A stretch of DNA of 64,000 nucleotides from an uncultured archaeon (GTDB lineage: Archaea; Asgardarchaeota; Thorarchaeia; Thorarchaeales; Thorarchaeaceae). Positions 2,528 through 22,105 of this stretch are shown here, one piece after another. Position 1 is the stretch's first letter; every line of letters begins with the position of its first letter. The notes under the pieces are model-generated. The model saw only the letters and a list, made by a program, of their open reading frames with translations, ran no database searches and was not told where the DNA came from. Position numbers and translations under genes: made by a program. The stretch covers positions 1 to 64,000 of the forward strand of contig CAYYQL010000010.1 in NCBI GenBank assembly GCA_964473825.1, given 5' to 3'.

Positions 2528-3355
2528 CTAGAGTTGAGCCTGATCCTGAAGACTACGGTAGACACGTACAATGTAGTCGCGGATTGATGCTATCCGCGAA
2601 TTAATTAGATCATAGTCCTCGTTACTATAGACCCAATCAGTGCTTTCTCTGACCTGAAGTCTGAGTCCATCAGACAGCTTTCTCTGCAGTCGGTAGTAGA
2701 TGTCATGTATAGTTCTGTAGGACGGGCCAAGCAACTTCCTTAGGAATTCCCTTTTCGTCTGAGGGTGAATTTCGTCCAGCAGGATGAGTTTCTCGATGTA
2801 ATAGTACGTTCCCAAGATGCTCATCAGGTCTATACATATCCCGCTGAAATGCGTGTGAGAATCCAGATTTGAAACACATCGGTTGAACTTATCAATCAAC
2901 TGTCCGGAAATTCTGATTACCCTACTGTAGTCAGGAGGAACGCACATCTCTCGGAAATCTCCACAGATGGCTTTTCCCATTCTGAGGCGAGTCCACATAG
3001 TGAAGTATTCTTGGTCTTTCAGATTCTCTTTCATACTCGAATCGCTTAGAAAAGAAATATCAATGAGGGTGCGTTCGCCTCTTCTATGAGTCGGTCTAAG
3101 CTTCTGGACCAGTTTCTCCGTGCGATCTCTTCTCTGGTCTTCTACGACAAAAACGAGGTCGATGTCACTGTGTAAATCGTTCTCTTGAACTGCCCACGAT
3201 CCTGTCAGGATTATGGCCTCAGTAAGCAGACATGCCTTATCTAGAAGCACTCTAAGCTTGCCAGTTACATCCTCGGGCAGTCTTCCAGAATTCAGAATGC
3301 CATCAATGTATTTCCGGGTTCTCAATGCTTTTTCTCCCTGCTCTGCTAGCTTCAA
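2528..3355 (-). CDS. Pol-beta-type nucleotidyltransferase (MNT-like) with a helical C-terminal domain
   Basis: IILTGSWA...SDIDLVFVV (hGS...DxD) motif, with a later DI acidic residue. Confidence 0.75.
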   Translation of the reverse strand: MKLAEQGEKALRTRKYIDGILNSGRLPEDVTGKLRVLLDKACLLTEAIILTGSWAVQENDLHSDIDLVFVVEDQRRDRTEKLVQKLRPTHRRGERTLIDISFLSDSSMKENLKDQEYFTMWTRLRMGKAICGDFREMCVPPDYSRVIRISGQLIDKFNRCVSNLDSHTHFSGICIDLMSILGTYYYIEKLILLDEIHPQTKREFLRKLLGPSYRTIHDIYYRLQRKLSDGLRLQVRESTDWVYSNEDYDLINSRIASIRDYIVRVYRSLQDQAQL

Positions 3356-5406: not shown

Positions 5407-6585
5407 TCAGTCTTGCGCAACGTCCCTTCTCGGTAAGAGCTGATACCGAGCAATCCGCCGGCCAACAAGAGCGAGAAGGAGGGCTACGCCAAACAGATAG
5501 GCGATTCTGGCATATGGAGAATACAGCAGGATATCTTGGCTCCCACCCAAGAGTGGAACGGCCTCGAGGATGACACCTGTATTGGCATCGACCACGTATC
5601 TTGTCCCCCACGTTGTGACAAGCGTCAACTCGTATGCCAGTGTCATCTCGAAAGCGGTTTCGCTGGGATTGACTGCCCTTGTCCTCAGCTCGAGTATCGA
5701 ATCGACGATGTTTCCCATGGAAGGGTCTGGAAGGCTCTCCAAGACTCTATTCCGTGCCGCTTCATCACTGATTATGCCCTGAAGTGAAACCGATCGAATG
5801 TCAATCCATCTGTAGGTGAATGATCTTACTAGCCCCGTGTCTGATTGAACTTCGACGCAGATATATCCCCATGGAATGTGTACCCCCTGAACGAACTGAC
5901 GAAAGCTAATATAATGAGTAGACGAGTAACTCTTGCTTTCCCATGGCACATTCCATGGAATCTCAGAGTAGAAGGCATCGGGCGGAAGAGTGTAGTTCTG
6001 CAGGAGAAGAAAATCCTTGGCAATCATCTCTGCTTCACTCTTGTTCAACGGAGAATCTCGATGGAACCCTGCAGACTCCAATGCTGAACTGCCAGTACTA
6101 AGGTAAGCATCAACAACAGTCCCAGTAACGGCATTGACAAAGATAGTTGCACGAAACGAATCCGAAACCAGTGTTAGTCCCCAGCGGGGCCAGAAGTAGT
6201 CTAGGATGATTTGTGGTGCGCCCGGCCACAAGTATTCATGAGGAAGTGCCACTCGAAGTCCCGTTGTGAGATTCTCTGGCAAATACCGCGATACGAACTT
6301 CATCGATGTATTCACAGCCTCTCCCTCCGAGACCTGAATATCCTTCGAGTAGTTCCCGATTATCTTGAACACCGGGCTTTCCTCTGTCTGATACGTTGCT
6401 GGATACACAGCCGGATCTCTCTCCTCCAGCACCAGTGATGCGAAAACAGTCTGATTCACCGGCGTATAGACCTCCCCTCGAAAGGCAAACCCCTCCATGT
6501 CTACTTGGGCGTAGGCTATTGAAACCGCTGAAGGGAGGAGCAATGCTGCGATAACAAGCGACACTCCATATACGTTCCGTTTCAT
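5407..6585 (-). CDS. Exported protein with PepSY/YcdB-like repeats and a C-terminal TM anchor
   Basis: Signal peptide; IFVNAVTGTV, VEVQSDTGLV and YVVDANTGVI repeats; C-terminal TM followed by RRIAR. Confidence 0.7.
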   Translation of the reverse strand: MKRNVYGVSLVIAALLLPSAVSIAYAQVDMEGFAFRGEVYTPVNQTVFASLVLEERDPAVYPATYQTEESPVFKIIGNYSKDIQVSEGEAVNTSMKFVSRYLPENLTTGLRVALPHEYLWPGAPQIILDYFWPRWGLTLVSDSFRATIFVNAVTGTVVDAYLSTGSSALESAGFHRDSPLNKSEAEMIAKDFLLLQNYTLPPDAFYSEIPWNVPWESKSYSSTHYISFRQFVQGVHIPWGYICVEVQSDTGLVRSFTYRWIDIRSVSLQGIISDEAARNRVLESLPDPSMGNIVDSILELRTRAVNPSETAFEMTLAYELTLVTTWGTRYVVDANTGVILEAVPLLGGSQDILLYSPYARIAYLFGVALLLALVGRRIARYQLLPRRDVAQD

Positions 6586-6655
6586 CTCTAAGACCCATCA
6601 GTTACATGCTCAATGACTACTATAATCCTATGTTTAGTAGGGTCGTGTACTAAAA

Positions 6656-7108
6656 CTAGAAGGGTTGGTGTTTCCACGTTCTGATGGTTTCAAACCAAGA
6701 AGAGATGGCTCCGAAGGCCAACACAGCGTAGCAGATGATGAGGATGGGACTGGGGTAGATGGGAAAGAGAATCGGCATCAGCAGCAGACAGGATGTGTAG
6801 AAGAGCGCGTAGAAAAGGTATCGTGGGAAGATGAGATGGCCAACACTGGCAAAGAACTTCAGGAGGCCAGCACTCACCTCCCGCGATATATGATGCATTC
6901 CATCCCTATCAGTTCGCACGAGACCGATGTCCTTGAGCTTGTCGATGTGATAGATCGCGAGGCTGGGACTTGAAAATCCAAGTGCTCGTTGCACCTCGCG
7001 ACCACTACAAGGGCCCGGATGACTCAGAAGCCACCAATACACACTCAGAGTCTTTCCCCGCAGGGCAGACTCGATCTCTTCCTGAAACACTAATTCCTCT
7101 TCATCCAA
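6656..7108 (-). CDS. Membrane-tethered winged-helix transcription regulator (wHTH + 2 TM)
   Basis: REVQRALGFSSPSLAIYHIDKLKDIGLV ArsR-like wHTH followed by two hydrophobic helices. Confidence 0.8.
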   Translation of the reverse strand: MDEEELVFQEEIESALRGKTLSVYWWLLSHPGPCSGREVQRALGFSSPSLAIYHIDKLKDIGLVRTDRDGMHHISREVSAGLLKFFASVGHLIFPRYLFYALFYTSCLLLMPILFPIYPSPILIICYAVLAFGAISSWFETIRTWKHQPF

Positions 7109-7347
7109 TCAGACCAACCACCACTCGATTCTGTAACGACCACTGTGTATTGGGGTGGTCATCCCCGAAATCCCGGTTCACGCACCTTTCGATCATGAAT
7201 TACATGCATACGCCATTGCGGTCAACGGTCATGATGCACCTCTGACTAGTTAGAATGAAGACGTTCAGGCCTAAAAAGACCCCCGTTCATTCTCATTTGG
7301 ATGCTTTATAACACTCCATCCGCTACCATAGGGTGGTGACCACCCCC

Positions 7348-7560
7348 ATGACGCTACTCAACTCGGAGACCGAACGGCGCGCCTGCGAGGTCGCCGAGAA
7401 GTTCGCCCGCTACCTCAACAGCCACTCTGGCAGGAACGTTCTCCAGAACCTGGACGAGGGTGAGAGCTTCATCCTCCAGACCGTCGAGGCCACCATGCGC
7501 GTGACCAAGGTGGGTGGGCGGCCGAGGTCGTTCTCCTCCACTAGACTGCGACCGTTCTGA
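7348..7560 (+). CDS. Small hypothetical protein
   Basis: GC3-rich codons; upstream TATA-like ctttataa. The 3' end may be frameshifted. Confidence 0.45.
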   Translation: MTLLNSETERRACEVAEKFARYLNSHSGRNVLQNLDEGESFILQTVEATMRVTKVGGRPRSFSSTRLRPF

Positions 7561-7595
7561 ATCACGCAGTCTTACCGGTACCCCGAGGGGTTTCC

Positions 7596-7979
7596 CTACT
7601 CCTCCATATTCTCCTCGATGCGCGCCCTGATTAGCTTCTCAAGGAGCGAGCGCTGGAGTGGTCGGGCCGGAGTGAAGTGTATCGTGGCATCCGTAGTGCC
7701 ATACGCAACCAGGTCGGCCCTGTGTTCCTCCAGGACGGACGGACTCATGACGTGGAAACTCAGGTGGTTCTTGGCTGCCGAGAACGCCACCAGCGGTTTC
7801 CCTCTGTACTTGATGGTCGGAATCCTGTAATTGATGGTTTCGACAGCATCCGGCACGATAGATCTGATGTTCTGACGAAGATTCCTCAGCACAATCTGCG
7901 ATTCCTCCGAGAGCGTGGCTAGATACTCGTCCACGTTCGTCGGACCGGGGATACCTTTGGGTGAAGCTTCATCGTTCAT
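7596..7979 (-). CDS. DUF1801/YdhG-like protein
   Basis: VDEYL...LRQNIRSIVPDAVETINYRIP...AFSAAKNHLSFH family pattern. Confidence 0.8.
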   Translation of the reverse strand: MNDEASPKGIPGPTNVDEYLATLSEESQIVLRNLRQNIRSIVPDAVETINYRIPTIKYRGKPLVAFSAAKNHLSFHVMSPSVLEEHRADLVAYGTTDATIHFTPARPLQRSLLEKLIRARIEENMEE

Positions 7980-8062
7980 GGCATTGAGATATACACCGGT
8001 CGGAGTTAACTATTGTGATTCAGGCCAACAGAAGCGAGGAATGTAAGACAGCGGGGGTCACA

Positions 8063-8080
8063 GCGAAGCATCTATAAGAC
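8063..8080 (+). promoter_or_regulatory. Archaeal BRE/TATA promoter of tRNA-Arg (duplicated at 2333-2350)
   Basis: gcgaagca-tctataag about 30 nt upstream of the mature 5' end. Confidence 0.6.
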
Positions 8081-8101
8081 AAATCCCCGCAGAATCGAAA
8101 C

Positions 8102-8228
8102 GGGGCCGTAGTCTAGCATGGTCTCTGGAGGTCTTCCCCCCAGGGCTGTACATAAGGCACCAGCCTGCGGTAAGCTTTCGCTTGTAGTTAGCTGGGGTTC
8201 CCCCGTTCGAATCGGGGCGGTCCCGCCA
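8102..8228 (+). tRNA. tRNA-Arg(GCG) with two introns (8122-8151 in the D-loop at 19/20; 8171-8189 canonical 37/38) and encoded CCA
   Basis: Acceptor GGGGCCG/CGGTCCC; D-stem GTCT/AGGC; anticodon stem CCAGC/GCTGG with GCG at 8167-8169; T-arm CCCCG-TTCGAAT-CGGGG; discriminator G, then CCA. Strict BHB at intron 2, relaxed BHB at intron 1. Splicing restores A20, the Arg identity base. Confidence 0.92.
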
Positions 8229-8570
8229 TCTGTTTTCTCAGTGTATCCTGATGACCGTGTTCATTGCTACTGATGCTCTCGATAGATGACAAGTCGCGGC
8301 CCGGGGCGTGATTCATTGTAGACATCTGTCCAATTGCCATACTGAAGGGGAACTCATAACCGCCGTTCCTACCACTTCGGCACCTATTGGCGCTCAATAG
8401 TAATAACAGGGACTCTTTCGCGGTTAAGACTTGGAGAGGGCTTAGCATAACCGATTTTGGTGTCCGACCTACATCTTATCTCTTCTCTCGCGAATGCTGT
8501 TGTGAATGAGAAACGGGGCAGGCGGGCACCTCGGCTCCTGTCTTCCCCGGTACAGGAGGTATAGGTATAC

Positions 8571-11500
8571 ATGTTGAAAGCACGAGGCGCGTCAAAACGA
8601 GTCGAGAGTCTGGCAAGAGCACGGTTCTTCTCCGGATTGCTCCCGACGGCTGCTATGGGCATTGCAGTAGGCCTTCTGGGCCTTGCACCCGCCCTCTGGG
8701 ATACGTCTGTCATGACCGGACTCTTTCGGTTGTCTGGCAAGTGGGTATCTGGAGCACATCTCATGAGGCCTATCATGCCGAGATACACGCTCCTAACGGC
8801 TCTGCTGTTTCTGTCAACCTTGATGTTTGAAAGCAGCTTTGAACTAGTTCTGGATTCTCTGGTCGCATTCCAGCAAGTTCTTGCATCTGTGGCGGTGGGA
8901 ACTGGATTCGTGTTCTTCCCATTCTACGTACACAGCAAGCATTCGATTCTGGCGGCTTCGAAGAACACCACAGAAAGGAGCATACTCCAACGAGTTGGCA
9001 AGGCACTTGCATCTCTCATCGGGCGAAGCAAGAAGGTATTTGGAGGTGTGGAGGTGACGCAGATACCCAGCACGTACATGACGGACGGTGACACAAGGGA
9101 GGAGGCGATCCATCGTGCCGAGATGTTCTATCAGATAATCAGGGCTGTGCGGATGAGCGGTATCCCATTCGGATTCATGTTGAAGCGGAGCATAGGGAAA
9201 CTCCGTCTCATCTATCTCACCTATGCTGAGGACACATCCGAACTACGAAACAGAGTCTGGAAGCTTCAGAACATACTGTCAAGTTCTCTCAAGGGGTTTA
9301 CTCTGACAACGCACAACGAGTTTGTCATTGAAGAGCAAAATCCACGAGATGCTGAGGTCACTGCCTACCTCGACGGTCCGCTTGCTCCCATCCAGGTCGG
9401 CCAAGAGGCGGCCGATGGACTGACCATTGCTATCGGATACCTCAGAAGCATTGGGGCAGGATCCATCCAAGTCTTGATTGAGCCAGCGCGTCCGTCACGG
9501 TGGAAACTCAATGGTCTGAAACGGGACTTTGAGTACGCGACAGGCCGCGCATCAAGGACGGTCTCGCATACGGGTGGCGGCATCCTTCGACAGAACAATC
9601 ACGAATCCGTTACCTTCACAGACATTGATGCATCCAACGAGGCGAGAGACCTGGCCATGCAGATAAGGCGCCAAGAGGCAACTGATGCCTGTAAGGCGTC
9701 GATCTCTGTGACATGTGAGGGATATACCCGTAGTGTTGCAGAGCAGTGTGCAAAGGATATACTGGCGGCAATCATGGGGCGCGTTCGACCCTCCTCTGAT
9801 CGCACTGGACTGTCAATCAAGACCAAGAAGAGTAACAACACTCTCAGGGCACTGACAAATGGCAGGCAACCTCCCAATTGGACCCTCATGGTTCCTGAGG
9901 AGATTGTTCCTGTTATGGTCATCCCACCCATTGATCTCGGCCTTGAGGTGGTCAATCGTGCACGATTCGTAACAGGCAAGACTCAGTCTGGCGAGCACCC
10001 ACCAGCGGAGACCCCGCGGCGCAGAAGCACACCCCCTCAACGGACAGGCAAGTTCAGTCTGGGCTCGGAGCTTGATGAGTCAGGGGCTAAGGTGGGACCC
10101 GTTCACTTCGCGCTTGAAGACATGGTTCGCCATGTGGAGGTATTCGGTGATACTGGGAGCGGTAAGACGTCCACTGTCAAGCGAATACTCAGTTCTGTTC
10201 ACGAGTCCAAGATACCGTTTCTTGTCTTGACCCCCACCCTAACTGATGACTATGTTTCTCTTGCCCGCGAGATCCCCTCATTGCGCTTCTTCACTCCCGG
10301 CGATGAGCGGACGGCTCCGCTACGGTTCAACCCTCATGAATTCTCGGAGGGAGTGTTGGTGAATACCATCCTAGCTGATGTCAAGGCGGCCTACATCGCC
10401 TCTGCACCAAGTATTGGAATCGTGAGGGAGTACACGGAGATGTGCATAGACAATAGTTTCGAACGATGTCAGTATGACCGTAATCACAACGCTCACGGAC
10501 ATGCCGTCCTTATGTCTGACCTCCTTGATTCCGTCGCTCACCTCGAACGTGATGTTCTTGAATACAGTGACAGGCAGAACCAAGACCTCATTGGTGCACT
10601 CCGGGGCAGATTCCGGTCGTTAATGAGTGGCCCACTCTACCGGGTATTCAACACGTTGACTGGCATGACTGTTGAGGAACTGGTCTCGGTTCCAACCGTC
10701 ATAGCATTGGATGGTCTAAGCGCAGATGAGCGGGCACTCTTTGCTTCACTCCTCGTCGTCAATGTGGCTCGGTACTTCCAGGCAAAAGCTCTGGAGATGA
10801 CAGCGGCGAAACCTCTGCGATTCCTGCTCGTATTGGAGGAGGCACATCACTTTCTTGTTCGAACTGGTGAGCGATCGGTGGATGAGGAGCACGCAGCCCG
10901 AAGCCATGCCATCCGTTCCATTGTGGAGGTACTGCGCGAGTCGCGTCGTAATGGTTTGGGGGTTGTGATCTTAGATCAACTTCCCTCCAGTCTTGACGAA
11001 CACGCCATGAGCCTTCCGGTCACCACCATCTTACATCGTCTGTCTACAGGTGTAGACCGGAGAACGATAGCGATGAAACTTGACCTCAACGAGGAGCAGC
11101 TGAAGATGGTCGGTTCTCTCCCTGTGGGACATGCTATTGCCAAGTTCGCAGGTGATGGGCAACCCATGTACATTTCGGTGCATCCTCCTCCAAAGAGAGC
11201 ACCCGTCGGGGCAGGGACGAAAACCAGTCTGAGAGACTGGGTACGAGAGCGCATGACGCAGGTCTACAAGGAGCACCCGGCAATCAGTGCAGGGCTCAGC
11301 AATCCCTTCGTGTTTCTTGAGGCCTCGGAATCCCCCACCGGTGCATCAGTCGAGATTGACCTCAGAGTAGCATGGAATGTAGTGGGTTTTGCTCGTTCCG
11401 ATTTTCTCGTAAACAACTACATGGCTTTCCTCAGAAGGGAGAAAATAATACTGTTGACCAAGCTAGCCGAACTGCTCTGGATTGTTCTTGAACGCATTAC

Positions 11501-12113
11501 CGGATCTTCACTCTCTGAGCCTCTTGTGAGCCTCTTCCTTCAGATACTGTGTCCTGATAGCATGGAGGAATCAGAGGCTGCACGGCACGAGATACTGGTG
11601 GAGAAGTTATGGGCTCATTTCGGACAAAGACAGCTCGACCTTCAAGAAAGGCTATACAAGGAACGAATCGCAGTTCTGCTTAAGGTTGTAGACGAGTACA
11701 GCCCGCATGTTGTGAGGCGGATATCCATTCCCTTCAAAGATATCCTCCAAGAAGAACTGGCACTTCTCAAGAAGAAATGGGATGCGTCTGAGGCAGCGGA
11801 GCAAAAAGAAGCCCCAATAGTTCAGCAGACTGAGCAAGACCTTGATGCCGAAACCCAACGGTTCTTCCTAGCTGCAATCGAAACGCATAGCTTTTCTTCG
11901 ATGTACTACGAGAGTCTAAGAGAGGCAGTAGATGGGGATCTTAGCAAGATAAGACGTATGCTGATTCGATTTGCTGAGAAATTTGGCCCTGAGGGCTGCA
12001 ATGCGCATCATGTCGCCGAGTGGTTGTTTGAGCGTGCTGTGGTGATTCTTGATGCTCCACAGGATGTGCTCATGCAGGAGTCCATCCGGCGAGCAATCCA
12101 AGGAACTGCTTGA
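8571..12113 (+). CDS. Membrane-anchored HerA/VirB4/FtsK-superfamily ATPase
   Basis: N-terminal TM helices; RHVEVFGDTGSGKT Walker A; LLVLEEAHHF Walker B; RESRRNGLGVVILDQ arginine-finger/Gln motif; FNP motif. Confidence 0.85.
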   Translation: MLKARGASKRVESLARARFFSGLLPTAAMGIAVGLLGLAPALWDTSVMTGLFRLSGKWVSGAHLMRPIMPRYTLLTALLFLSTLMFESSFELVLDSLVAFQQVLASVAVGTGFVFFPFYVHSKHSILAASKNTTERSILQRVGKALASLIGRSKKVFGGVEVTQIPSTYMTDGDTREEAIHRAEMFYQIIRAVRMSGIPFGFMLKRSIGKLRLIYLTYAEDTSELRNRVWKLQNILSSSLKGFTLTTHNEFVIEEQNPRDAEVTAYLDGPLAPIQVGQEAADGLTIAIGYLRSIGAGSIQVLIEPARPSRWKLNGLKRDFEYATGRASRTVSHTGGGILRQNNHESVTFTDIDASNEARDLAMQIRRQEATDACKASISVTCEGYTRSVAEQCAKDILAAIMGRVRPSSDRTGLSIKTKKSNNTLRALTNGRQPPNWTLMVPEEIVPVMVIPPIDLGLEVVNRARFVTGKTQSGEHPPAETPRRRSTPPQRTGKFSLGSELDESGAKVGPVHFALEDMVRHVEVFGDTGSGKTSTVKRILSSVHESKIPFLVLTPTLTDDYVSLAREIPSLRFFTPGDERTAPLRFNPHEFSEGVLVNTILADVKAAYIASAPSIGIVREYTEMCIDNSFERCQYDRNHNAHGHAVLMSDLLDSVAHLERDVLEYSDRQNQDLIGALRGRFRSLMSGPLYRVFNTLTGMTVEELVSVPTVIALDGLSADERALFASLLVVNVARYFQAKALEMTAAKPLRFLLVLEEAHHFLVRTGERSVDEEHAARSHAIRSIVEVLRESRRNGLGVVILDQLPSSLDEHAMSLPVTTILHRLSTGVDRRTIAMKLDLNEEQLKMVGSLPVGHAIAKFAGDGQPMYISVHPPPKRAPVGAGTKTSLRDWVRERMTQVYKEHPAISAGLSNPFVFLEASESPTGASVEIDLRVAWNVVGFARSDFLVNNYMAFLRREKIILLTKLAELLWIVLERITGSSLSEPLVSLFLQILCPDSMEESEAARHEILVEKLWAHFGQRQLDLQERLYKERIAVLLKVVDEYSPHVVRRISIPFKDILQEELALLKKKWDASEAAEQKEAPIVQQTEQDLDAETQRFFLAAIETHSFSSMYYESLREAVDGDLSKIRRMLIRFAEKFGPEGCNAHHVAEWLFERAVVILDAPQDVLMQESIRRAIQGTA

Positions 12114-15100
12114 TAGGGGTCGTGGCTGTGGTCGACAACCCCGGGCAGGGCAAGGAGTATCAGAAGGATGAGGCTAACGAAGAGTACTCTGATACTGAGG
12201 ATATACGGGAGGATCGGCTCGATGTTGAGAATCAGATGAGCGAGTTCAGAGGAGAAATCGAGGCCGAAGAAGAGCTTGAGTCACGGATAAGTGAATTCAG
12301 GGAGGAGCTGGAACGAGTCGATGTTGATGCGCGGGTCCGCGAGTTCAGGGAGGAACTGGAGCAAGAAGAGAATGTGGAGAATAGTGGCGAAGCCGAGGTG
12401 GATGATGTCGGTGACAACACTGACGGATCACCATCTGAGAGGGCCTCTCAGATAAAGGACACCTCCGAACAACTCCAGGAGCAGTACAGGTCAGAGTTGA
12501 AGGAAAAACTCGACTCAGACGAGGCCGAGGACCGGACTCATACCGAACCCGAAGAAACCCCCGAGCATTCAGACACTGATCAATCGGAGCGGAATGAAGA
12601 TCATTTGGAGGAGAATGCGGGGAGCCAGCAGGTCACAGTCACCATGGAGGTTGAGAGCACCGCAGATCCGGAGGAGGCTACTGAGAAGCGTTTGCAGACT
12701 GAGGATTCAGAGATTGTCACTGAGGAGAAGACAAGTGAAGAGTTCTCCGAAGAATCATCGAGCGAGGTATCTGAAGAAAGCGAGGGGGACGAAAGATCGA
12801 AAGAACGAGAGACCTCGGAGGAAGCACCGGAGAAGGCCGAGGAAGACGATATCAGAACCGTTGAGGAGGATATGGGGTCTAAGGAGAAGCAAACCCTGAC
12901 TCCTCAAGGCATGGAAGTTCCTGAGGGAATGGAGCCAGAGAAGAACTCGAGGGATGATACTGAGCAGGCAGAATCACTTGAACCTGATGTTGAGACTGAT
13001 GCAGTTGAATGCGAGAATACCACTGAGGAAAGGAGAGAGGCTCCCACTGAGAACACATCGGAGAGAGAGGATGCAGTCGACGAGGACGAGGGCGACAGGG
13101 GTAGAAGAAACACCCCCAATGAACACAATACTCGGTTCGAAGGACGCTCAAGGATGTTTCCTGACGGTGAGCCTGTGTGGTCGTCGATGTTCCCTGAAAC
13201 GCGAGAGGAGCGCCTCAGGAGGGTGCTTGAGGAGGAGTTTGACAGACTCTCCGAAGAGGAGAAGGAACAGATACGGGATGCAGCCAAGGATTCCATGAAG
13301 ACAGAAGACCTAGAGAAGCATGTCAATATGCACAGAGAGTCGATTGACGACGATTGCCAAGATGAGAAGATTCGGGATGCAGAGAATTTCATACGGGTGA
13401 GAGAGGCGCTTGAGAACCTGGAAGACCCCGACGGCCTTGGTGAGCTTTCCGAGGAGCTGGGGATCGACAGAGAGAATCTCGAGAAACTCGCAGACGATGC
13501 GAACGCACCCGAGCTTGTGAAGTACATCTGGAACTTGGAGGTGGAACGGCGCTGGGCAGAGATTCTCTTAGGTCAGCTTAACAGACTCTCTGCCAAATCT
13601 GACACAGGTGCGATGGAGAACCCTTTTGAGTCAGCTGAGGATCTCTCTTGGGACAAGCGTTGTATCATTGTCACCGAGCGGCAGTACGAGGAGTCCCTTG
13701 CACGGCATCAGCATCTCAGATTTCGACTGGAATTCGATGATAGAGATAATGACGTGCGCGTGTTCTTCAAACTGAAGAAGTCCCTGGAAGAGGGCGAGGT
13801 CAATCAAAAGGAATTCGCAGAGGAGCACAATGTAGCTGTGTGGAAGATACGTAGATGGGCAAGAGAAGAGGAAATCCCCAGTTTCCTGAGCGAACTCCAT
13901 CGACTGGAGCTTAAACGGTTGTACGTAGAGACCAATGGTGAGCCGCCTGAGGTCTGTATCGAGTCAACAGGCGATATACGGAAACTGGCGGCCAGACACG
14001 GGCGGGAAGAGAAAGTCGACTACGAGATGTGCGAGAAGTACTTCAGTGTACTAGCCGACCCGGAAACCCTGCAAAAGGACTTGGCACTGAAGTATGAGGT
14101 GTCCGATACTACAATCAGTCAGTGGCTGCGAGAAACGGAACCACGTGACATCTCCGACCTGCGGCGACGGGAGGAGGAGATAATTTTGGAAGAGTGGTAT
14201 CAGCGAAAAAGGCTGAAACTGCCCCTAGACGGAAGACTTGAGAACACCGAGCGGTGCATCCGCAGAATCAGTGAACGAGAGGTCCTCGAGTTCGAGCCGA
14301 ATCCCGATCGGATGAGCCTACTCCACATGTATCGTGACCAGTTCTTCTACTTCAAAGATATCAACTCACTAGCCTCGTTGCTGGCTGATGCCAAGGAAGC
14401 CCTAACAGGTGATAGAGGCGGCGATTTGAGAATTATTGTTGAGCGGCTTGAGCTGCTCATGGACAGGGTATTTGGTGAACACAAGGTTCCGCGAGTCAAC
14501 ATCACTAAGATGCGAATGCGTGCTGATCACCTCGAGTTTCTCTTGGGTGTGTCGGGTCAATCAATCCGGGACCTTGAGGGAAAGATATCCAAGATTACGA
14601 CAGAAAACGGGATGGGGGGTATCACCAATCCGAGGTTTCCTTCTCGTGAGGAGCTGCTGGTAATATGGGCTAGGATAATCGCGACCATAGTCTGTGATGG
14701 GAGTCTGAAGAAGACCGCTGCGGTAGCTTACCACGAGCCTGAAATCACGCGGATCGAGATCTTTGAACGGACCGTACAGAGGCTAGGCGCAGTCTTTCTC
14801 GACCCTCAGTGGCGGAAAGACCATAATTGCTACATCGCTCATCTTCCTACCGTGATTGGACGAGTACTGCAAGAGCTCGGTCTACCAACGGGGGACAAGA
14901 CGATCCACAATCCGGAGATAGACATCTCGCTCTTCATGGAGTCTTGGGAGGCTCTCTGCGCGATCATCGAAGACTCCATTCCACAGGATGGCACGGTGTT
15001 GCCGAGGGCGATATCCTGGACATTTTCGAATGCTCTAAATGCAGGGAACAAGAGCGAGGCTTACGACTTCGAGCCAATGCTCGACAAAGAGGAAGTAGCA

Positions 15101-15529
15101 TTCATCAAAAAGTTTGGAAAACTGCGGAGAAAATGCTGGAGTATAGAATGGGGCGAGCTCAAAAGACTTCGCGAATCAGATGACAGAAGGACTGCTCAGC
15201 TTGCAGTTGGCATTGCCAGAAAAATCAAGCAGAACCCAAACCGCCTAGTGATGACTATGGAAGAGATTGGTTCAAGACTAGGGGTGAAGATAGCACGGTC
15301 TCCCGGCACACTACGCCTCATGCGCAGGACTGACAGGGTGTCGATTTCGTGGTATGCACGCACGAAGACCATTGACGACATGATTAGGCTTGCACTCATT
15401 GCACCTCCCAATGACGTCAAGAAGAAGGAGCTTCTCAAAAGGTATCTGGGAAAGAGGGCCGAACGGGTGTCGAAGATAAAGGATAATCTGACTAGAGAAG
15501 GAGTTAAAATTCAAAACGAGGGAATATAA
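12110..15529 (+). CDS. Large protein: acidic disordered N-terminus, three HTH modules, C-terminal LAGLIDADG-like endonuclease domain
   Basis: E/D-rich first ~350 aa. HTHs LSEELGIDRE, FAEEHNVAVWKIRRW and LALKYEVSDTTISQW. IIATIVCDGSL and IIEDSIPQDGTV resemble paired LAGLIDADG motifs. Confidence 0.6.
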   Translation: MIGVVAVVDNPGQGKEYQKDEANEEYSDTEDIREDRLDVENQMSEFRGEIEAEEELESRISEFREELERVDVDARVREFREELEQEENVENSGEAEVDDVGDNTDGSPSERASQIKDTSEQLQEQYRSELKEKLDSDEAEDRTHTEPEETPEHSDTDQSERNEDHLEENAGSQQVTVTMEVESTADPEEATEKRLQTEDSEIVTEEKTSEEFSEESSSEVSEESEGDERSKERETSEEAPEKAEEDDIRTVEEDMGSKEKQTLTPQGMEVPEGMEPEKNSRDDTEQAESLEPDVETDAVECENTTEERREAPTENTSEREDAVDEDEGDRGRRNTPNEHNTRFEGRSRMFPDGEPVWSSMFPETREERLRRVLEEEFDRLSEEEKEQIRDAAKDSMKTEDLEKHVNMHRESIDDDCQDEKIRDAENFIRVREALENLEDPDGLGELSEELGIDRENLEKLADDANAPELVKYIWNLEVERRWAEILLGQLNRLSAKSDTGAMENPFESAEDLSWDKRCIIVTERQYEESLARHQHLRFRLEFDDRDNDVRVFFKLKKSLEEGEVNQKEFAEEHNVAVWKIRRWAREEEIPSFLSELHRLELKRLYVETNGEPPEVCIESTGDIRKLAARHGREEKVDYEMCEKYFSVLADPETLQKDLALKYEVSDTTISQWLRETEPRDISDLRRREEEIILEEWYQRKRLKLPLDGRLENTERCIRRISEREVLEFEPNPDRMSLLHMYRDQFFYFKDINSLASLLADAKEALTGDRGGDLRIIVERLELLMDRVFGEHKVPRVNITKMRMRADHLEFLLGVSGQSIRDLEGKISKITTENGMGGITNPRFPSREELLVIWARIIATIVCDGSLKKTAAVAYHEPEITRIEIFERTVQRLGAVFLDPQWRKDHNCYIAHLPTVIGRVLQELGLPTGDKTIHNPEIDISLFMESWEALCAIIEDSIPQDGTVLPRAISWTFSNALNAGNKSEAYDFEPMLDKEEVAFIKKFGKLRRKCWSIEWGELKRLRESDDRRTAQLAVGIARKIKQNPNRLVMTMEEIGSRLGVKIARSPGTLRLMRRTDRVSISWYARTKTIDDMIRLALIAPPNDVKKKELLKRYLGKRAERVSKIKDNLTREGVKIQNEGI

Positions 15530-15531
15530 CA

Positions 15532-16122
15532 ATGAGTAAGATGCTGGAAAAAGATGTCACAATTCTCATGGATTTGCTAGATACGTGTGACCAGACAGGG
15601 TTGCCTCTTGAGGACCTGGAAGAAGCTCTGGAGGACCGGATTGAATCTCACGACGACCTGAAAGAACCAGGTCTGGCAAATCAGGCAATCCGGCATGCCC
15701 TAGATAACTGGCTCATTGATAAGACCATTGACTATCGTCGCAACAAGAGCGGTGAAGAGGTTGGAGCACTCATCTGGTTCTGCCGAAAACTCACACAGGA
15801 CGAATCTGAGAAACTGAGGCGACTATCTGAAATCGAGAAAGAAACGATACGGATTCTGAGAGCACAGGAAACCGAGGAAGGGCTTGGAACGATGCGGGAG
15901 AGAGATCTTCTGGAGTATCTCAGAGCCAAAGGATTCGAAACGGACTTTGCTCCGTCGATTGAGGACTATGTATCGGATTATTTCAAAACGGAAGACGGTG
16001 AGAACGTCGAGTGGATCTATCTGGTTCCCCAGTTTGAGCTGACCGAGGAATACAAGCAAGGTATGAGAGAGCTTGATGAGATGTCTTTGCAGAAGGAGCT
16101 TAGGCGCGAGCGGGAAGGGTGA
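15532..16122 (+). CDS. Acidic tandem winged-helix-like protein, paralog 1
   Basis: Shares ALDNWLIDKTIDY and KGFET..PxFELTE motifs with 16239-16817 and 20450-20666. Confidence 0.75.
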   Translation: MSKMLEKDVTILMDLLDTCDQTGLPLEDLEEALEDRIESHDDLKEPGLANQAIRHALDNWLIDKTIDYRRNKSGEEVGALIWFCRKLTQDESEKLRRLSEIEKETIRILRAQETEEGLGTMRERDLLEYLRAKGFETDFAPSIEDYVSDYFKTEDGENVEWIYLVPQFELTEEYKQGMRELDEMSLQKELRREREG

Positions 16123-16238
16123 CTCAGCCCGTTGTTCAGGTCTCCATGCTTCATGCAGTAGGGTGTCCTCGCGGAAGGCACCGGAGTCACCATTCTGATG
16201 ATTCTATGGTGTTCAAATCCAAGGGAGAGGAATCAATC

Positions 16239-16817
16239 GTGAGAAGGATGTTTGATAGATTAATCTTGCTTCTTTTGGAGATACTGCGCGAGGCCGGACC
16301 TCAGGGACTGCCAGTTGAAGACGTAAGAGCCCTGCTTGAGAAGAGAATCGACTATCAAGATGCGGGTTCACCTGACCAAGTTATCGAGTATGCCTTAGAC
16401 AATTGGCTCATTGACAAGACAATCGATTATTGCCGTGACACCAGGGGCGTAGAGGTTGGAGAGTTGCGCTGGTTCTTGCGTGCACTCAGTGAAGAAGAGT
16501 CTGAGGAATTGAAGCAGTTGCCTGATATCAAGAAGCAAATCATAAGAATCCTTAGGCGTCAGGAGACCGAGCGGGGATTGGGGATGATAAGAGCCGAGGA
16601 GCTCTTGGAAAAACTGCGAAACAAAGGATTCGAAACTCAGTATGTCCCAATCGCTGATATTCGTGTTTCTGATGTCTTCAAGGCTGAAGAAGGCAAACTT
16701 GTGAAATGGATCCGCCTGATTCCCGAGTTCGAGCTCACTGAGGACTTCAAACAGACTATGAAAGAGCTTGAGGATATGTCACTAAGAAAGGACATCCGAC
16801 GCGAACGAACATATTGA
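16239..16817 (+). CDS. Acidic tandem winged-helix-like protein, paralog 2
   Basis: GTG start with upstream GGGAGAGG aligns with the paralog 1 N-terminus (MRRMFDRL vs MSKMLEKD). Confidence 0.75.
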   Translation: MRRMFDRLILLLLEILREAGPQGLPVEDVRALLEKRIDYQDAGSPDQVIEYALDNWLIDKTIDYCRDTRGVEVGELRWFLRALSEEESEELKQLPDIKKQIIRILRRQETERGLGMIRAEELLEKLRNKGFETQYVPIADIRVSDVFKAEEGKLVKWIRLIPEFELTEDFKQTMKELEDMSLRKDIRRERTY

Positions 16818-16901
16818 GTCATCCGGGCACACGCTGACCTCGTCTGTTCAACTCTAAGGGTTCCACTGAAAATCCCCGTCTTCTTCATGGACTCAGATAT
16901 A

Positions 16902-17297
16902 CTAGTAGCACTCTACTCTGACTCTTGGCACCCTCTTGAAATGCTCGTGGTTTCTCGTTAGAATCTCATAATCGCAGGCTCTTGCCGTTCCTGCAATCAT
17001 GATGTCTGGAATATCAATCATCTGGCCGGTGGTGTGTAGGTAGCCGTGGACCTGCCCAGATTCCACTGCACTTCTTTCATCGAATTCAACGATTCGCATC
17101 TTTGACAGCGCAGTTTCTACCTTCTTCTTTTCGTTCTTCATTTTCACTGCCTGAGAAACCCCTGCGTATAACTCGTACATTGTGATAGTCGATACAAGAA
17201 GGGAAATTCCCCCTCTCTTCAACTCCTCTAGCTTCTTATAGGCTGCTTTTTCCCCTTTCATCACATCAATGATGAAAGAGGTATCAGCTAGAATCAT
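16902..17297 (-). CDS. vapC: VapC/PIN-domain toxin
   Basis: ILADTSFIID, STITMYEL, DIMIAGTA and LTRNHEHF PIN motifs. Confidence 0.92.
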   Translation of the reverse strand: MILADTSFIIDVMKGEKAAYKKLEELKRGGISLLVSTITMYELYAGVSQAVKMKNEKKKVETALSKMRIVEFDERSAVESGQVHGYLHTTGQMIDIPDIMIAGTARACDYEILTRNHEHFKRVPRVRVECY

Positions 17298-17631
17298 CTG
17301 ATGTCTCCCAGAGTCTTTTCCTCATATCTTCCGAGAATCTCTCTCTCACTTCCCTCATAGCCTCGGTCAACTCGGCGCTTTCTTCTTCGCCCAATATGCC
17401 GAATATTGAAAATAAAGCATCGAGTGTCGGATTGCCGCCATAAATCAGGTATCGGCCTGTGACATCGACCTCAGAACCCTCTAATCTACATTCGATTTCA
17501 CTGATATGTATCCTAATCTCAACTACGAGAAACGGAGTGCTTTCGAATGAATCCTCCGGAACATACCACCCCGGTATTGCTGAATCCCTCTCGGTGGTTT
17601 CATCTGGTAATACTCGGCTACACAGAGTCAT
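17284..17631 (-). CDS. Putative antitoxin (VapB-like C-terminal helix)
   Basis: Overlaps vapC by 14 nt; FGILGEEESAELTEAMREVR resembles archaeal VapB C-termini. Confidence 0.5.
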   Translation of the reverse strand: MTLCSRVLPDETTERDSAIPGWYVPEDSFESTPFLVVEIRIHISEIECRLEGSEVDVTGRYLIYGGNPTLDALFSIFGILGEEESAELTEAMREVRERFSEDMRKRLWETSDDSS

Positions 17632-18013: not shown

Positions 18014-18357
18014 TCTTCATTCCACCATGACCATCGTACCATATGGGAGTTTCTACTCTGTGCGGCCAAAGTCGATGCTCCTTTGTGCATAACGATACCC
18101 CCGGATCATATTAATTCCTATCGAAAGCACACCCGCAGACTAGGTCTGTCTCTAGATTAACCTTCTTCTCATCCAAGACCTCCCGATTCTTCACAGAATG
18201 GATTTCTGCAAATCGCCTGTACAGAGGGCTAGCTAGGGGGCGATCTGGTCAGTTGAGGGCGGTATATCCACAGAATATCCTAGGTTAGAAACGGTGTCAC
18301 CGCAGTTGAAGCTTATGAAGGGGTTGCTTGCTAATAACACTGAGGCCAAGTCGCGAC

Positions 18358-18381
18358 TTCAAATCGGGGCGATTCAGCAAT
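18358..18381 (+). repeat. Degenerate copy of the tRNA-Arg 3' end (relict att site)
   Basis: ttcaaatcggggcgattcagcaat vs ttcgaatcggggcggtcccgccat (8206-8229): 19/24 identical; intergenic. Confidence 0.55.
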
Positions 18382-20393: not shown

Positions 20394-20413
20394 TTGTAGA
20401 TGGATTCCCTAGC

Positions 20414-20455
20414 GTTTCTGGAGCCAAAGACGCTCCAGAAACCTCCTTTTCTTTT
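20414..20455 (+). terminator. Perfect 11-bp hairpin plus pyrimidine tract
   Basis: GTTTCTGGAGC-caaagac-GCTCCAGAAAC, then ctccttttctttt. Confidence 0.55.
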
Positions 20456-20666
20456 GGAGCATCTGAGGACGAAAGGATTCGAAACGGACTTCGCTCCGAC
20501 GATAGGGGACTATGTGTCTGACTATTTCACCACGGAGGATGGCGAGAACGTCGAGTGGATCTATCTACTTCCCCAATTCGAGCTTAATGGGGACTACAAG
20601 CAAATGAACGAAGAGATCGATGAAATGTCCCTTCGGAAGGAGCTTCGACGCGAGCGAGAAGGCTGA
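20450..20666 (+). pseudogene. 5'-truncated third paralog of the acidic winged-helix family
   Basis: LLEHLRTKGFETDFAPTIGDYVSDYF...KELRREREG closely matches the C-terminal third of 15532-16122. Confidence 0.85.
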
Positions 20667-20809
20667 GTGTAGGCCACCCCACTGAATACTCCTAAGACTG
20701 CTCTTGCTCTGATAATTGTACTGCATTCTCACTCAAGTCTGGCTGGTCATACTATACTTCTGCACGGCACGTGCTCTATTAGGGATTCTAGAAGCATCCT
20801 GGAGAATGA

Positions 20810-21133: not shown

Positions 21134-21952
21134 CTAGAGTTTTCCACCGCAGTGCGGGCAGAAGGCCATTCCCCCCTCGATTCTTGCCGAGCAGAAGGGA
21201 CACTTGTTTCCCGCTCTCAGAGACTCCTCCGACCTGACAACCTGAATGGAAACATCTACCGTCTTGGTTGTCCGCAGAGAGTACCCGTTGTCGAACACAA
21301 CGAGCAGGGGTTCGCTCTTCGTACAGTGGTACTCGACATCTATCTCTCCCAGTTTCTCTTTGCTCCAATAGGATTTGTCTAGGTGAATAGTATCGGGGGT
21401 TTCGTACATCTTGCTGAGTATGTGAACATTGATATCATTGCCGCTTGTGACGCGCCCGAAGACTCGGATGACATCGCCTCTGTTAACGTTCACATCGATA
21501 GTTTCCAAATAGCCGGCGTCCACCTCGAAACTCTCACGCAAGGGCTCATCGCCTACTTCTAGTGGCGGGTGATCAACGCAGACATGCACATCGATTGCTT
21601 TCCATCTTGATTTTGCATGCATGTTATCTAGGAAGAGATAGTACACAGTACGACAATCAGCTGTGTGGGAGTGGTCTACGCTCGACACCTTCTCCTTGCT
21701 CCAAAGAACATCCTCCGTATTGAAGTCGAGAGTCTTCTTGCCAAGAATCGGTATCTTTTCGAGAGCTCCTCCTATCAGAGGGATACGTTTGATATCATCG
21801 GACTTGAGCAGATACGCACTGAAGTCATCACCGTCCTCTTCGGCTGCTCTGATGGTAATCTCAGTTCCTTCTCGGCAGGGTATCTCCACATAGTCCCAGT
21901 CGCCAGCTTCAAGATTCACAGTCTTACGGAGTTCTCCACCACGTACTTTCAA
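21134..21952 (-). CDS. Tandem GOLD/emp24-like beta-sandwich protein with a C-terminal zinc ribbon
   Basis: Two internal repeats ending YYLFLDNMHAKSRWKAIDV and LLVVFDNGYSLRTTKTVDV; CPFC...CPHC. Confidence 0.6.
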   Translation of the reverse strand: MKVRGGELRKTVNLEAGDWDYVEIPCREGTEITIRAAEEDGDDFSAYLLKSDDIKRIPLIGGALEKIPILGKKTLDFNTEDVLWSKEKVSSVDHSHTADCRTVYYLFLDNMHAKSRWKAIDVHVCVDHPPLEVGDEPLRESFEVDAGYLETIDVNVNRGDVIRVFGRVTSGNDINVHILSKMYETPDTIHLDKSYWSKEKLGEIDVEYHCTKSEPLLVVFDNGYSLRTTKTVDVSIQVVRSEESLRAGNKCPFCSARIEGGMAFCPHCGGKL

Positions 21953-22078: not shown

Positions 22079-22105
22079 GCTCAAGTCTGGCCGGTCCCGC
22101 CATCT
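22079..22105 (+). repeat. attR-like copy of the tRNA-Arg 3' end
   Basis: 22/27 identical to 8205-8231, including 14 exact bases. Confidence 0.75.

Follow-up and report, generated by a model that had tools for sequence, protein, structure and literature searches.

Free-standing homing endonuclease genes are known to insert at gene ends, as do the seg and mob genes of phages and the "mobile ORFs" (open reading frames) of fungal mitochondria, and HerA-clade ATPase genes lie next to genes for a nuclease or effector with which joint action is presumed, either in end resection (NurA-HerA) or in defence (Sir2-HerA, DUF4297-HerA). Here we describe a module with parts akin to both groups, whose three-gene composition is without a described counterpart. 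It lies at positions 8571-16817 of a stretch of 64,000 nucleotides (nt) from an uncultured archaeon of the family Thorarchaeaceae (Asgardarchaeota; Thorarchaeia; Thorarchaeales), namely positions 1-64,000 of the forward strand of contig CAYYQL010000010.1 in assembly GCA_964473825.1; "the window" below denotes this whole stretch. The module encodes a membrane-anchored ATPase of the HerA clade (gene 1), a large protein that ends in a double LAGLIDADG nuclease fold (gene 2), and a small acidic protein predicted to cap that nuclease, followed by a paralogue of the latter. We propose tentatively, with a confidence that falls a little short of even, that the module forms the core of a mobile island of the homing type, which has no integrase but possesses its own membrane DNA motor. 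Islands of this family occupy the 3' ends of tRNA genes, and in relatives the ends of housekeeping genes as well, and they are more likely to spread by cutting DNA than to act as a secreted toxin.

The module resembles the seg/mob genes and the mobile ORFs in that the nuclease gene stands beside, not within, a conserved target gene, in that no integrase is present, and in that copies are found intact, decaying and lost. It differs from them in the size of the element (up to 8 kb or more), in the presence of a DNA-motor ATPase and a predicted nuclease cap, in being bounded by repeats of a tRNA 3' end, and in that homing is something we infer here. With the HerA pairs it has in common the adjacency of a HerA-clade ATPase gene and a nuclease gene; the partner here, however, is a LAGLIDADG protein, and the ATPase possesses transmembrane (TM) helices, an N-domain of 350 amino acids (aa) and a C-terminal extension of 300 aa, and scores only 22-57 bits against NCBIfam models with cut-offs of 600-970. 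Full-text literature searches (HerA with LAGLIDADG, Asgard defence, archaeal polymorphic toxins) returned no description of the module, and neither HerA nor LAGLIDADG comes up in recent surveys of immunity in archaea and in the Asgard group. In what follows, L-numbers denote loci from other genomes or metagenomes and G-numbers denote genomes, of which G002 is a congener of the archaeon in the window; the features of the module, the tRNA gene and its repeats are all on the plus strand.

The four ORFs of the module (8571-12113, 12110-15529, 15532-16122 and 16119-16817) are found where a first-pass annotation of this DNA had placed them. Gene 1 (8571-12113) encodes an ATPase of 1180 aa, which is a member of the FtsK-HerA superfamily, of the HerA clade, with an N-terminal membrane anchor. 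Hydrophobic helices lie within the first 121 residues (TM helices at approximately 8625-8933) and are followed by an N-domain of no known family (9018-10070), a P-loop domain (10083-11180) with the Walker A motif GDTGSGKT (residues 526-533, positions 10146-10169) and the Walker B motif LLVLEEAH (residues 752-759, positions 10824-10847), and a helical C-terminus. The protein matches the Pfam family HerA/DUF87, PF01935 (35.8 bits, cut-off 23.2), and a profile from 12 of its homologues matches solved HerA chains (anti-phage proteins and Saccharolobus HerA) at 1e-12 to 1e-14, the anti-phage HerA proteins being its best solved relatives. The same profile found no FtsK or VirB4 match among solved structures, and IcmO at E 2e-4 across 40 residues. 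The VirD4/VirB4 signature is lacking (TrwB_AAD_bind reaches 13 bits against a cut-off of 20.5, in the P-loop region only), and the match to EccC is weak (E 0.024) and limited to the P-loop. No NurA/Mre11/Rad50 neighbourhood is seen, the neighbours of the ATPase being the LAGLIDADG protein and the winged-helix (WH) protein. A look-up of the N-domain (residues 140-505) in the ESM Atlas returned unnamed clusters and DUF8128 at 0.89, which serves as a lead only. The top NCBIfam match of the whole protein is CedD (56.5 bits, E 1.9e-15, cut-off 600), a protein that Sulfolobales need for the import of DNA (PMC11868833). The ATPase has the layout of CedB and CedD, i.e. a TM domain, an N-domain and a HerA/VirB4-like ATPase (PMC11868833), but it falls far below the CedD cut-off, belongs to a different phylum and is linked to a nuclease; no CedA, pilin or other Ced partner genes occur among the neighbours of the module.

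The kinship with anti-phage HerA proteins, together with partial matches to the HerA (E 4e-16) and mad8 models of PADLOC, brings up a different explanation, according to which the module is a system of defence against viruses or plasmids that forms part of the cargo of tRNA islands. A membrane HerA-type hexamer would here act with a LAGLIDADG effector, and the small protein would hold the nuclease off until foreign DNA or infection frees it, in a manner like Sir2-HerA, DUF4297-HerA and NurA-HerA. Such a system would account for the pairing of HerA with a nuclease. The PADLOC and NCBIfam HerA matches, however, cover the models partly and lie far under the equivalog cut-offs: 27-35 bits versus 800-850 for the anti-phage HerA models and 21.7-38.6 bits versus 800-970 for the models of HerA in double-strand break repair. 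Two bacterial ATPases of about 1150 aa, from Microbispora (L047) and from a metagenome (L048), have the P-loop half in common with gene 1. We considered them as members of the same system and rejected this, as they are encoded directly after genes of dynamin-like GTPases and appear to belong to a different system; this pairing of an ATPase with a dynamin-like GTPase also appears to be undescribed.

Gene 2 (12110-15529, 1139 aa) starts with a TTG codon that overlaps the TGA of gene 1. Its residues 1-480 (12110-13549) form an extremely acidic, disorder-type region (isoelectric point, pI, about 4.1; 31-39% Asp and Glu) with repeated motifs of the EFRxE type, and residues 481-700 (13550-14209) comprise repeats resembling helix-turn-helix (HTH) domains, for which there are weak matches only (residues 561-586 and 655-678). 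Across this gene (12000-17000 in the window) GC and AT skew are strongly positive (up to +0.26 and +0.28), owing to the purine-rich codons of the acidic region and not to replication. The last 450 residues have no Pfam match, and the PDB yielded nothing useful when searched by sequence with the profiles of the nuclease and of the small protein. The AlphaFold2 model of the nuclease domain, with a mean confidence (pLDDT) of 87.6, shows a double LAGLIDADG endonuclease fold at residues 844-1121 (14639-15472), in which the end of each LAGLIDADG helix bears an acidic metal-binding residue. D863 (codon 14696-14698; model residue 174) falls, by alignment offset, on the catalytic D21 of I-DmoI and is invariant in an alignment of 21 C-termini (the window and its relatives), while D960 (codon 14987-14989) is conserved in at least 90% of them and G961 in all. 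This conservation argues that we are not dealing with a dead fold of the WhiA type: as judged from the sequence, the domain is an apparently active double LAGLIDADG nuclease with both metal-binding Asp residues kept. In WhiA, moreover, the LAGLIDADG fold is followed by the HTH, whereas in gene 2 the HTH-like repeats precede it.

The archaeal monomeric LAGLIDADG enzymes (I-DmoI and I-Tsp061I, and the endonuclease domains of PI-PfuI and TliVMA) are only 14-17% identical to the domain of gene 2. Unlike them, gene 2 is a free-standing ORF outside any intron or intein (the Pfam scan found no Hint domain) and lacks a Pfam match; it carries about 840 additional N-terminal residues (the acidic region and the HTH-like repeats) and an insert of about 80 residues in subdomain 2, and is coupled to a membrane ATPase and a predicted binding partner. 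A hidden Markov model search of 1.84 billion representative proteins identified 868 members of the nuclease family, 241 of them at E<=1e-30; in these representatives the nuclease domain is always C-terminal, after 0-1100 variable residues, and where database names are given the relatives are hypothetical proteins of Thorarchaeota. Neither the nuclease family nor the small-protein family has a Pfam model.

Small protein 1 (15532-16122) is an acidic protein of 196 aa (pI 4.5), and all its homologues are acidic as well (pI 4.5-5.9). Its model (pLDDT 90.3) predicts an N-terminal winged helix, a WH-like helix-helix-helix-hairpin unit and a long C-terminal helix; a wide VIA search placed the first 88 residues alone as a winged helix, and Foldseek gave nothing better than E 1e-3, the weak top matches being tandem-WH "kite" proteins. 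When co-folded with the nuclease domain, the small protein reaches an interface score (ipSAE) of 0.82, versus 0.00 for the best control. A value of 0.82 was attained by 58 of 80 solved complexes and by 2 of 110 mismatched pairs, counts that hold only roughly here, since custom alignments were used. The runs agree in at least 90% of contacts, with partner pLDDT of at least 86. The predicted interface comprises model residues 271-284 and 373-393, i.e. four strands of subdomain 2, together with the Asp of motif 2 and residues 176/186 next to the Asp of motif 1. In LAGLIDADG enzymes these beta-sheets form the DNA-binding saddle; a small protein placed as in the model, on the saddle and the Asp residues, would therefore block both DNA and the active site. 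Small protein 2 (16119-16817, with the start probably near 16239) is a paralogue with 56% identity to small protein 1, and a truncated third copy (20400-20666) retains a 72-residue C-terminal fragment of the family (homology at 20448-20663).

The left border of the island is formed by a tRNA gene with introns (8102-8228), recognised by direct reading of the sequence, whose 3' end (8205-8228) serves as the left att-like repeat. ARAGORN and Rfam (at the gathering threshold, and at E<=1 on 6500-9000) report no tRNA in the window; we accept the gene because of the sequence reading, the repeats, and its orthologues, which ARAGORN calls in L023, L043 and L044. The first 71 nt of this tRNA are duplicated 5.7 kb upstream (2372-2442, 95.8% identity), with the 3' part absent, and in the G002-type contig L044 a 22/26 copy of the tRNA 3' end is found upstream of the tRNA (3238-3263). 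The right-hand repeat (22079-22105) matches 19 of 24 positions of the tRNA end, with the last 14 nt and the subsequent TCT exact, and it is here that synteny with a conserved peptidase-M24 flank begins. The orthologous repeat sites in G002 match the tRNA end at 23 of 24 positions. The chance expectation for such a match is about 0.005 per window (a binomial estimate that assumes equal base frequencies). Within the island we also found a degenerate repeat (18357-18380, 18/24) and an att-like remnant (20733-20748), which resembles the variant at 22079 and is located 66 nt past the truncated small gene.

Repeats of the tRNA end number four in G002, two in G001 and one in a metagenome orthologue, and in each of these a repeat follows about 50 nt after the end of a small-gene copy (twice in G001). 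The length of the island varies between close relatives: 14 kb in the window compares with about 29 kb in G002 and about 13 kb in the orthologous contig from the metagenome. In G002, 13 kb with Schlafen-like and AbiTii-like genes lies exactly between the two small genes. The position of small-gene ends near repeats suggests tandem accretion, with the small gene as the last gene of each element. The intact three-gene set beside the tRNA would then be the newest element, and small gene 2 is likely to be the last gene of an older, decayed one.

Comparable positions are occupied in other lineages. In six loci (L033, L034, L045, L022, L035 and L029) the nuclease gene and a tRNA converge, with 6-10 nt between the stop codon of the former and the 3' end of the latter, and in L033 an 18/22 repeat of the end of that tRNA is present 9.9 kb off, beyond the ATPase. 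In L056 the gap between the nuclease stop and that of a convergent acyl-CoA dehydrogenase gene is 2 nt, and the nuclease stop of L037 and L040 directly adjoins a third copy of the methylmalonyl-CoA mutase gene, truncated at its 5' end. Two genomes have two intact mutase genes plus a third copy that lacks the first ~170 positions; the truncated copies begin at the LAGLIDADG stop codon (L037:10409-11509 and L040:5631-6731; also G005:C42:405450-406481). In L054 (4540-6587, minus strand) a LAGLIDADG_3-tipped relative of gene 2 is directly followed by an ORF of 131 aa that ends in urocanase positions 1 to ~44, and the next ORF begins at urocanase position ~36; the start of urocanase at the end of the element is either duplicated or frameshifted. 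In the congeners L029 and L035 a 2.2-kb segment with a solo LAGLIDADG gene (L029:9617-11848) stands in place of 182 bp (L035:14023-14204), with sharp breakpoints and no terminal repeats. The idea that a solo nuclease cassette in G002 had donated a replacement 5' end to the flanking ORF found no support, as the N-termini are unrelated.

The simplest island was found in genome G008 (L042), where a tRNA-Thr is followed by a 3.95-kb segment closed by a 20/22 repeat of the tRNA end; the nuclease gene is the only large gene in it, next to three ORFs of 81-129 aa without a family. In the same genus, G246 has a diverged version of this island and G226 a repeat-bounded insert of 1.4 kb, whereas G023 and G207 have an empty site: the right-flank gene follows directly on the tRNA, the nuclease is absent, and att occurs only once. 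None of the ORFs of any island scanned belongs to a recombinase family, and the whole 3.27-Mb genome yielded a single tyrosine recombinase match (PF00589), on another contig. The islands share with those of tyrosine integrases the direct repeats of the tRNA 3' end, a variable cargo that includes defence genes, and accretion in tandem, but differ in having no integrase in the islands examined and in that a LAGLIDADG gene or an ATPase gene is proximal to the tRNA. One could still regard the module as passenger genes of islands moved by an unseen recombinase, the LAGLIDADG protein being a WhiA-like regulator or partition factor and the ATPase a segregation or repair motor. We find this highly improbable: WhiA has lost the catalytic acidic residues, both of which are conserved across the family considered here, and no island scanned contains a gene for a recombinase.

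The co-occurrence of homologues of these genes, an expectation of the first-pass annotation, is clear from the related genomes. The module is present in 45 of the 76 genomes searched in the family, often in multiple copies, and in at least 13 of 20 fetched loci the ATPase gene is directly upstream of the LAGLIDADG gene, with gaps or overlaps of a few bases only and protein identities of 23-40%. The small gene is third in nine of the 20 loci; most family members are without it, and the six loci that have the complete set of three genes form one clade (support 100/99) in the tree of the nuclease domain. The nuclease gene occurs solo in L029 (twice), L032, L035 and L042. Between the near-identical contigs L049 and L050 a LAGLIDADG gene of 936 aa is in one case split into ORFs of 353 and 541 aa, and in both Mrr-like and HEPN/AbiV genes come next. 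A second survey, which started from the ATPase side and covered 41 genomes, revealed ATPases without a nuclease neighbour of this family; here the next gene encodes a large protein similar to the N-terminal half of gene 2 (40-45% identity). The partners in L054, L056, L057 and L059 end in a different, Pfam-recognised LAGLIDADG domain, while that in L055 has HTH domains only and that in L058 has no Pfam match, neither of the two with a detectable nuclease domain. Hence, the ATPase is linked with a LAGLIDADG-tipped protein whose tip is exchangeable between LAGLIDADG subfamilies.

The distribution of the module is patchy, with fast turnover, and the flanks of many loci are rich in genes of defence and toxin-antitoxin systems (PIN, AbiEii, AbiTii, PLD nuclease, Schlafen-like, DUF6602, Mrr, HEPN). 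Both features, as well as the predicted occlusion of the nuclease by the small protein, speak for a defence role. To our knowledge, though, no defence system uses LAGLIDADG enzymes, which read long specific sites. A defence role would also give no reason why, in many loci, no more than 10 nt lie between the nuclease stop and the end of a tRNA or other gene, and it is at odds with the finding that the nuclease gene by itself makes an island with repeats at its borders, at a site that is empty in a congener. On balance we judge a defence system to be unlikely.

Comparison of close relatives reveals an exchange of the C-terminal part of gene 2. In the orthologous loci L033 and L034, from one genus, the ATPases are about 95% identical and the nuclease proteins 70-96% identical up to residue ~300, beyond which identity is only 26-58%; in the nuclease tree the two domains are not sisters. 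Between the window and its G002 orthologue, synonymous divergence (dS) is 0.08-0.25 over the ATPase and residues 1-700 of gene 2, but 0.44-1.33 over the LAGLIDADG part and 1.25 in the small gene, with a nonsynonymous to synonymous ratio (dN/dS) of 0.08-0.37. We conclude from the jump in dS and the low dN/dS that the nuclease domain and its small partner have been replaced together by a diverged allele under purifying selection, which fits a matched pair. Positive selection at the interface between the two proteins was considered and rejected, since high dS combined with low dN/dS indicates allele replacement.

These observations bear on the proposal of the first-pass annotation that the module is a polymorphic nuclease toxin with immunity proteins, in which the toxin is exported by the membrane ATPase and orphan immunity genes lie nearby. 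Several of its elements hold: the C-terminus has a nuclease fold with the catalytic Asp pair kept, the small protein is predicted to bind it tightly over the active site, a constant N-terminal half is combined with a swapped cassette of the C-terminal nuclease and the small gene, and further small-gene copies are found in the island and in congeners. Moreover, FtsK/HerA-superfamily ATPases export toxins in type VII secretion, and, as judged from one lineage, the acidic N-terminus of gene 2 goes with TM-bearing ATPases and is absent from proteins whose ATPase has no TM part. In these respects the module, with the small protein as a putative cognate binder, is like the contact-dependent inhibition (CDI), Rhs and LXG type VII systems, with their constant N-terminal part, exchangeable C-terminal nuclease, downstream cognate binder and spare copies. 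What is not found is the diversity of nuclease folds (no nuclease fold other than LAGLIDADG, in two subfamilies, was seen among the 868 representatives and the variant ATPase partners), a known trafficking domain or signal, or a known secretion apparatus: the ATPase is of the HerA clade, not grouped with a known exporter. LAGLIDADG enzymes are long-site cutters and therefore poor general toxins, most family members have no small gene, dN/dS gives no sign of an arms race at the interface, and the tRNA-end repeats and the empty site would be left unexplained. We consequently regard the toxin interpretation as very unlikely.

The mobile-island interpretation may be cast in the following terms. 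The LAGLIDADG domain would cut an unoccupied target, whereupon repair would copy the island in (homing), or the same cut might maintain the island where it already resides. The tandem winged-helix small protein, seated on the beta-saddle and active site, might restrain the nuclease or change the target that it cuts. The membrane ATPase, CedD-like in layout, could translocate DNA at or through the membrane and thereby bring the element to new cells, and the acidic N-terminus of gene 2 may dock the nuclease to this motor. A minimal DNA-transfer module, offered as an alternative in the first-pass annotation, comes closer to this scheme than the toxin did, in view of the repeat-bounded tRNA islands without integrase and the empty site in a congener. 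In a bolder version, which we deem quite unlikely, the module would represent a new class of self-transmissible element, with a HerA-type motor that transfers DNA between Asgard cells and the LAGLIDADG protein as pilot nuclease. The latter would be threaded or docked via its polyanionic N-terminus, stripped of its winged-helix cap, and would cut the empty tRNA site of the recipient, into which the three-gene element would be copied without integrase, relaxase or transposase.

Several points weigh against a homing-type island. A gene for a homing endonuclease can as a rule do without both an inhibitor and a membrane ATPase of 1180 aa. Tyrosine integrases classically leave behind direct repeats of a tRNA 3' end, and the single gene of this kind elsewhere in the genome could act in trans. 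The loci most similar to the window (L025-L027) have no nearby tRNA, and neither around them nor around L038 are there flanking direct repeats of at least 12 nt. In the window itself no clear repeat follows the first small gene. With no more than 23-40% identity among the paralogues within a genome, nothing points to recent bursts, and a scan of viral contigs with a protein query found no extrachromosomal or viral copy. Finally, the defence-rich flanks fit defence cargo equally well.

Other genes accompany the module in the window and elsewhere. Between small gene 2 and the internal att repeat, on the minus strand, a gene with a PIN domain (VapC-like) overlaps an upstream ORF of 115 aa (16902-17297 and 17284-17631); the two probably form a VapBC toxin-antitoxin pair. 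Four different copies of the module have beside them a gene for a protein that combines a GOLD/emp24-like domain with a zinc ribbon at the C-terminus (21134-21952, minus strand, in the window; L037:1568-2296; L038:17547-18542; L049:9029-9730). A leucine-rich-repeat protein of 754 aa with a helix-hairpin-helix domain near the C-terminus is encoded at 45-2309 of the window, and leucine-rich-repeat proteins flank another module copy too (L034:15472-16635).

The closest relatives of eukaryotes known so far are the Asgard archaea, among which the movement of DNA is barely understood. A role of the module in defence or as a toxin would make it the first such system with a LAGLIDADG effector. If the mobile-island reading is true, these islands integrate at tRNA genes without an integrase, by means of a homing nuclease equipped with its own membrane motor and cap. 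The family would then be a source of natural nucleases with long recognition sites, each accompanied by its matched protein inhibitor, and would constitute a new route of gene flow, which would also spread the defence genes carried on the islands.

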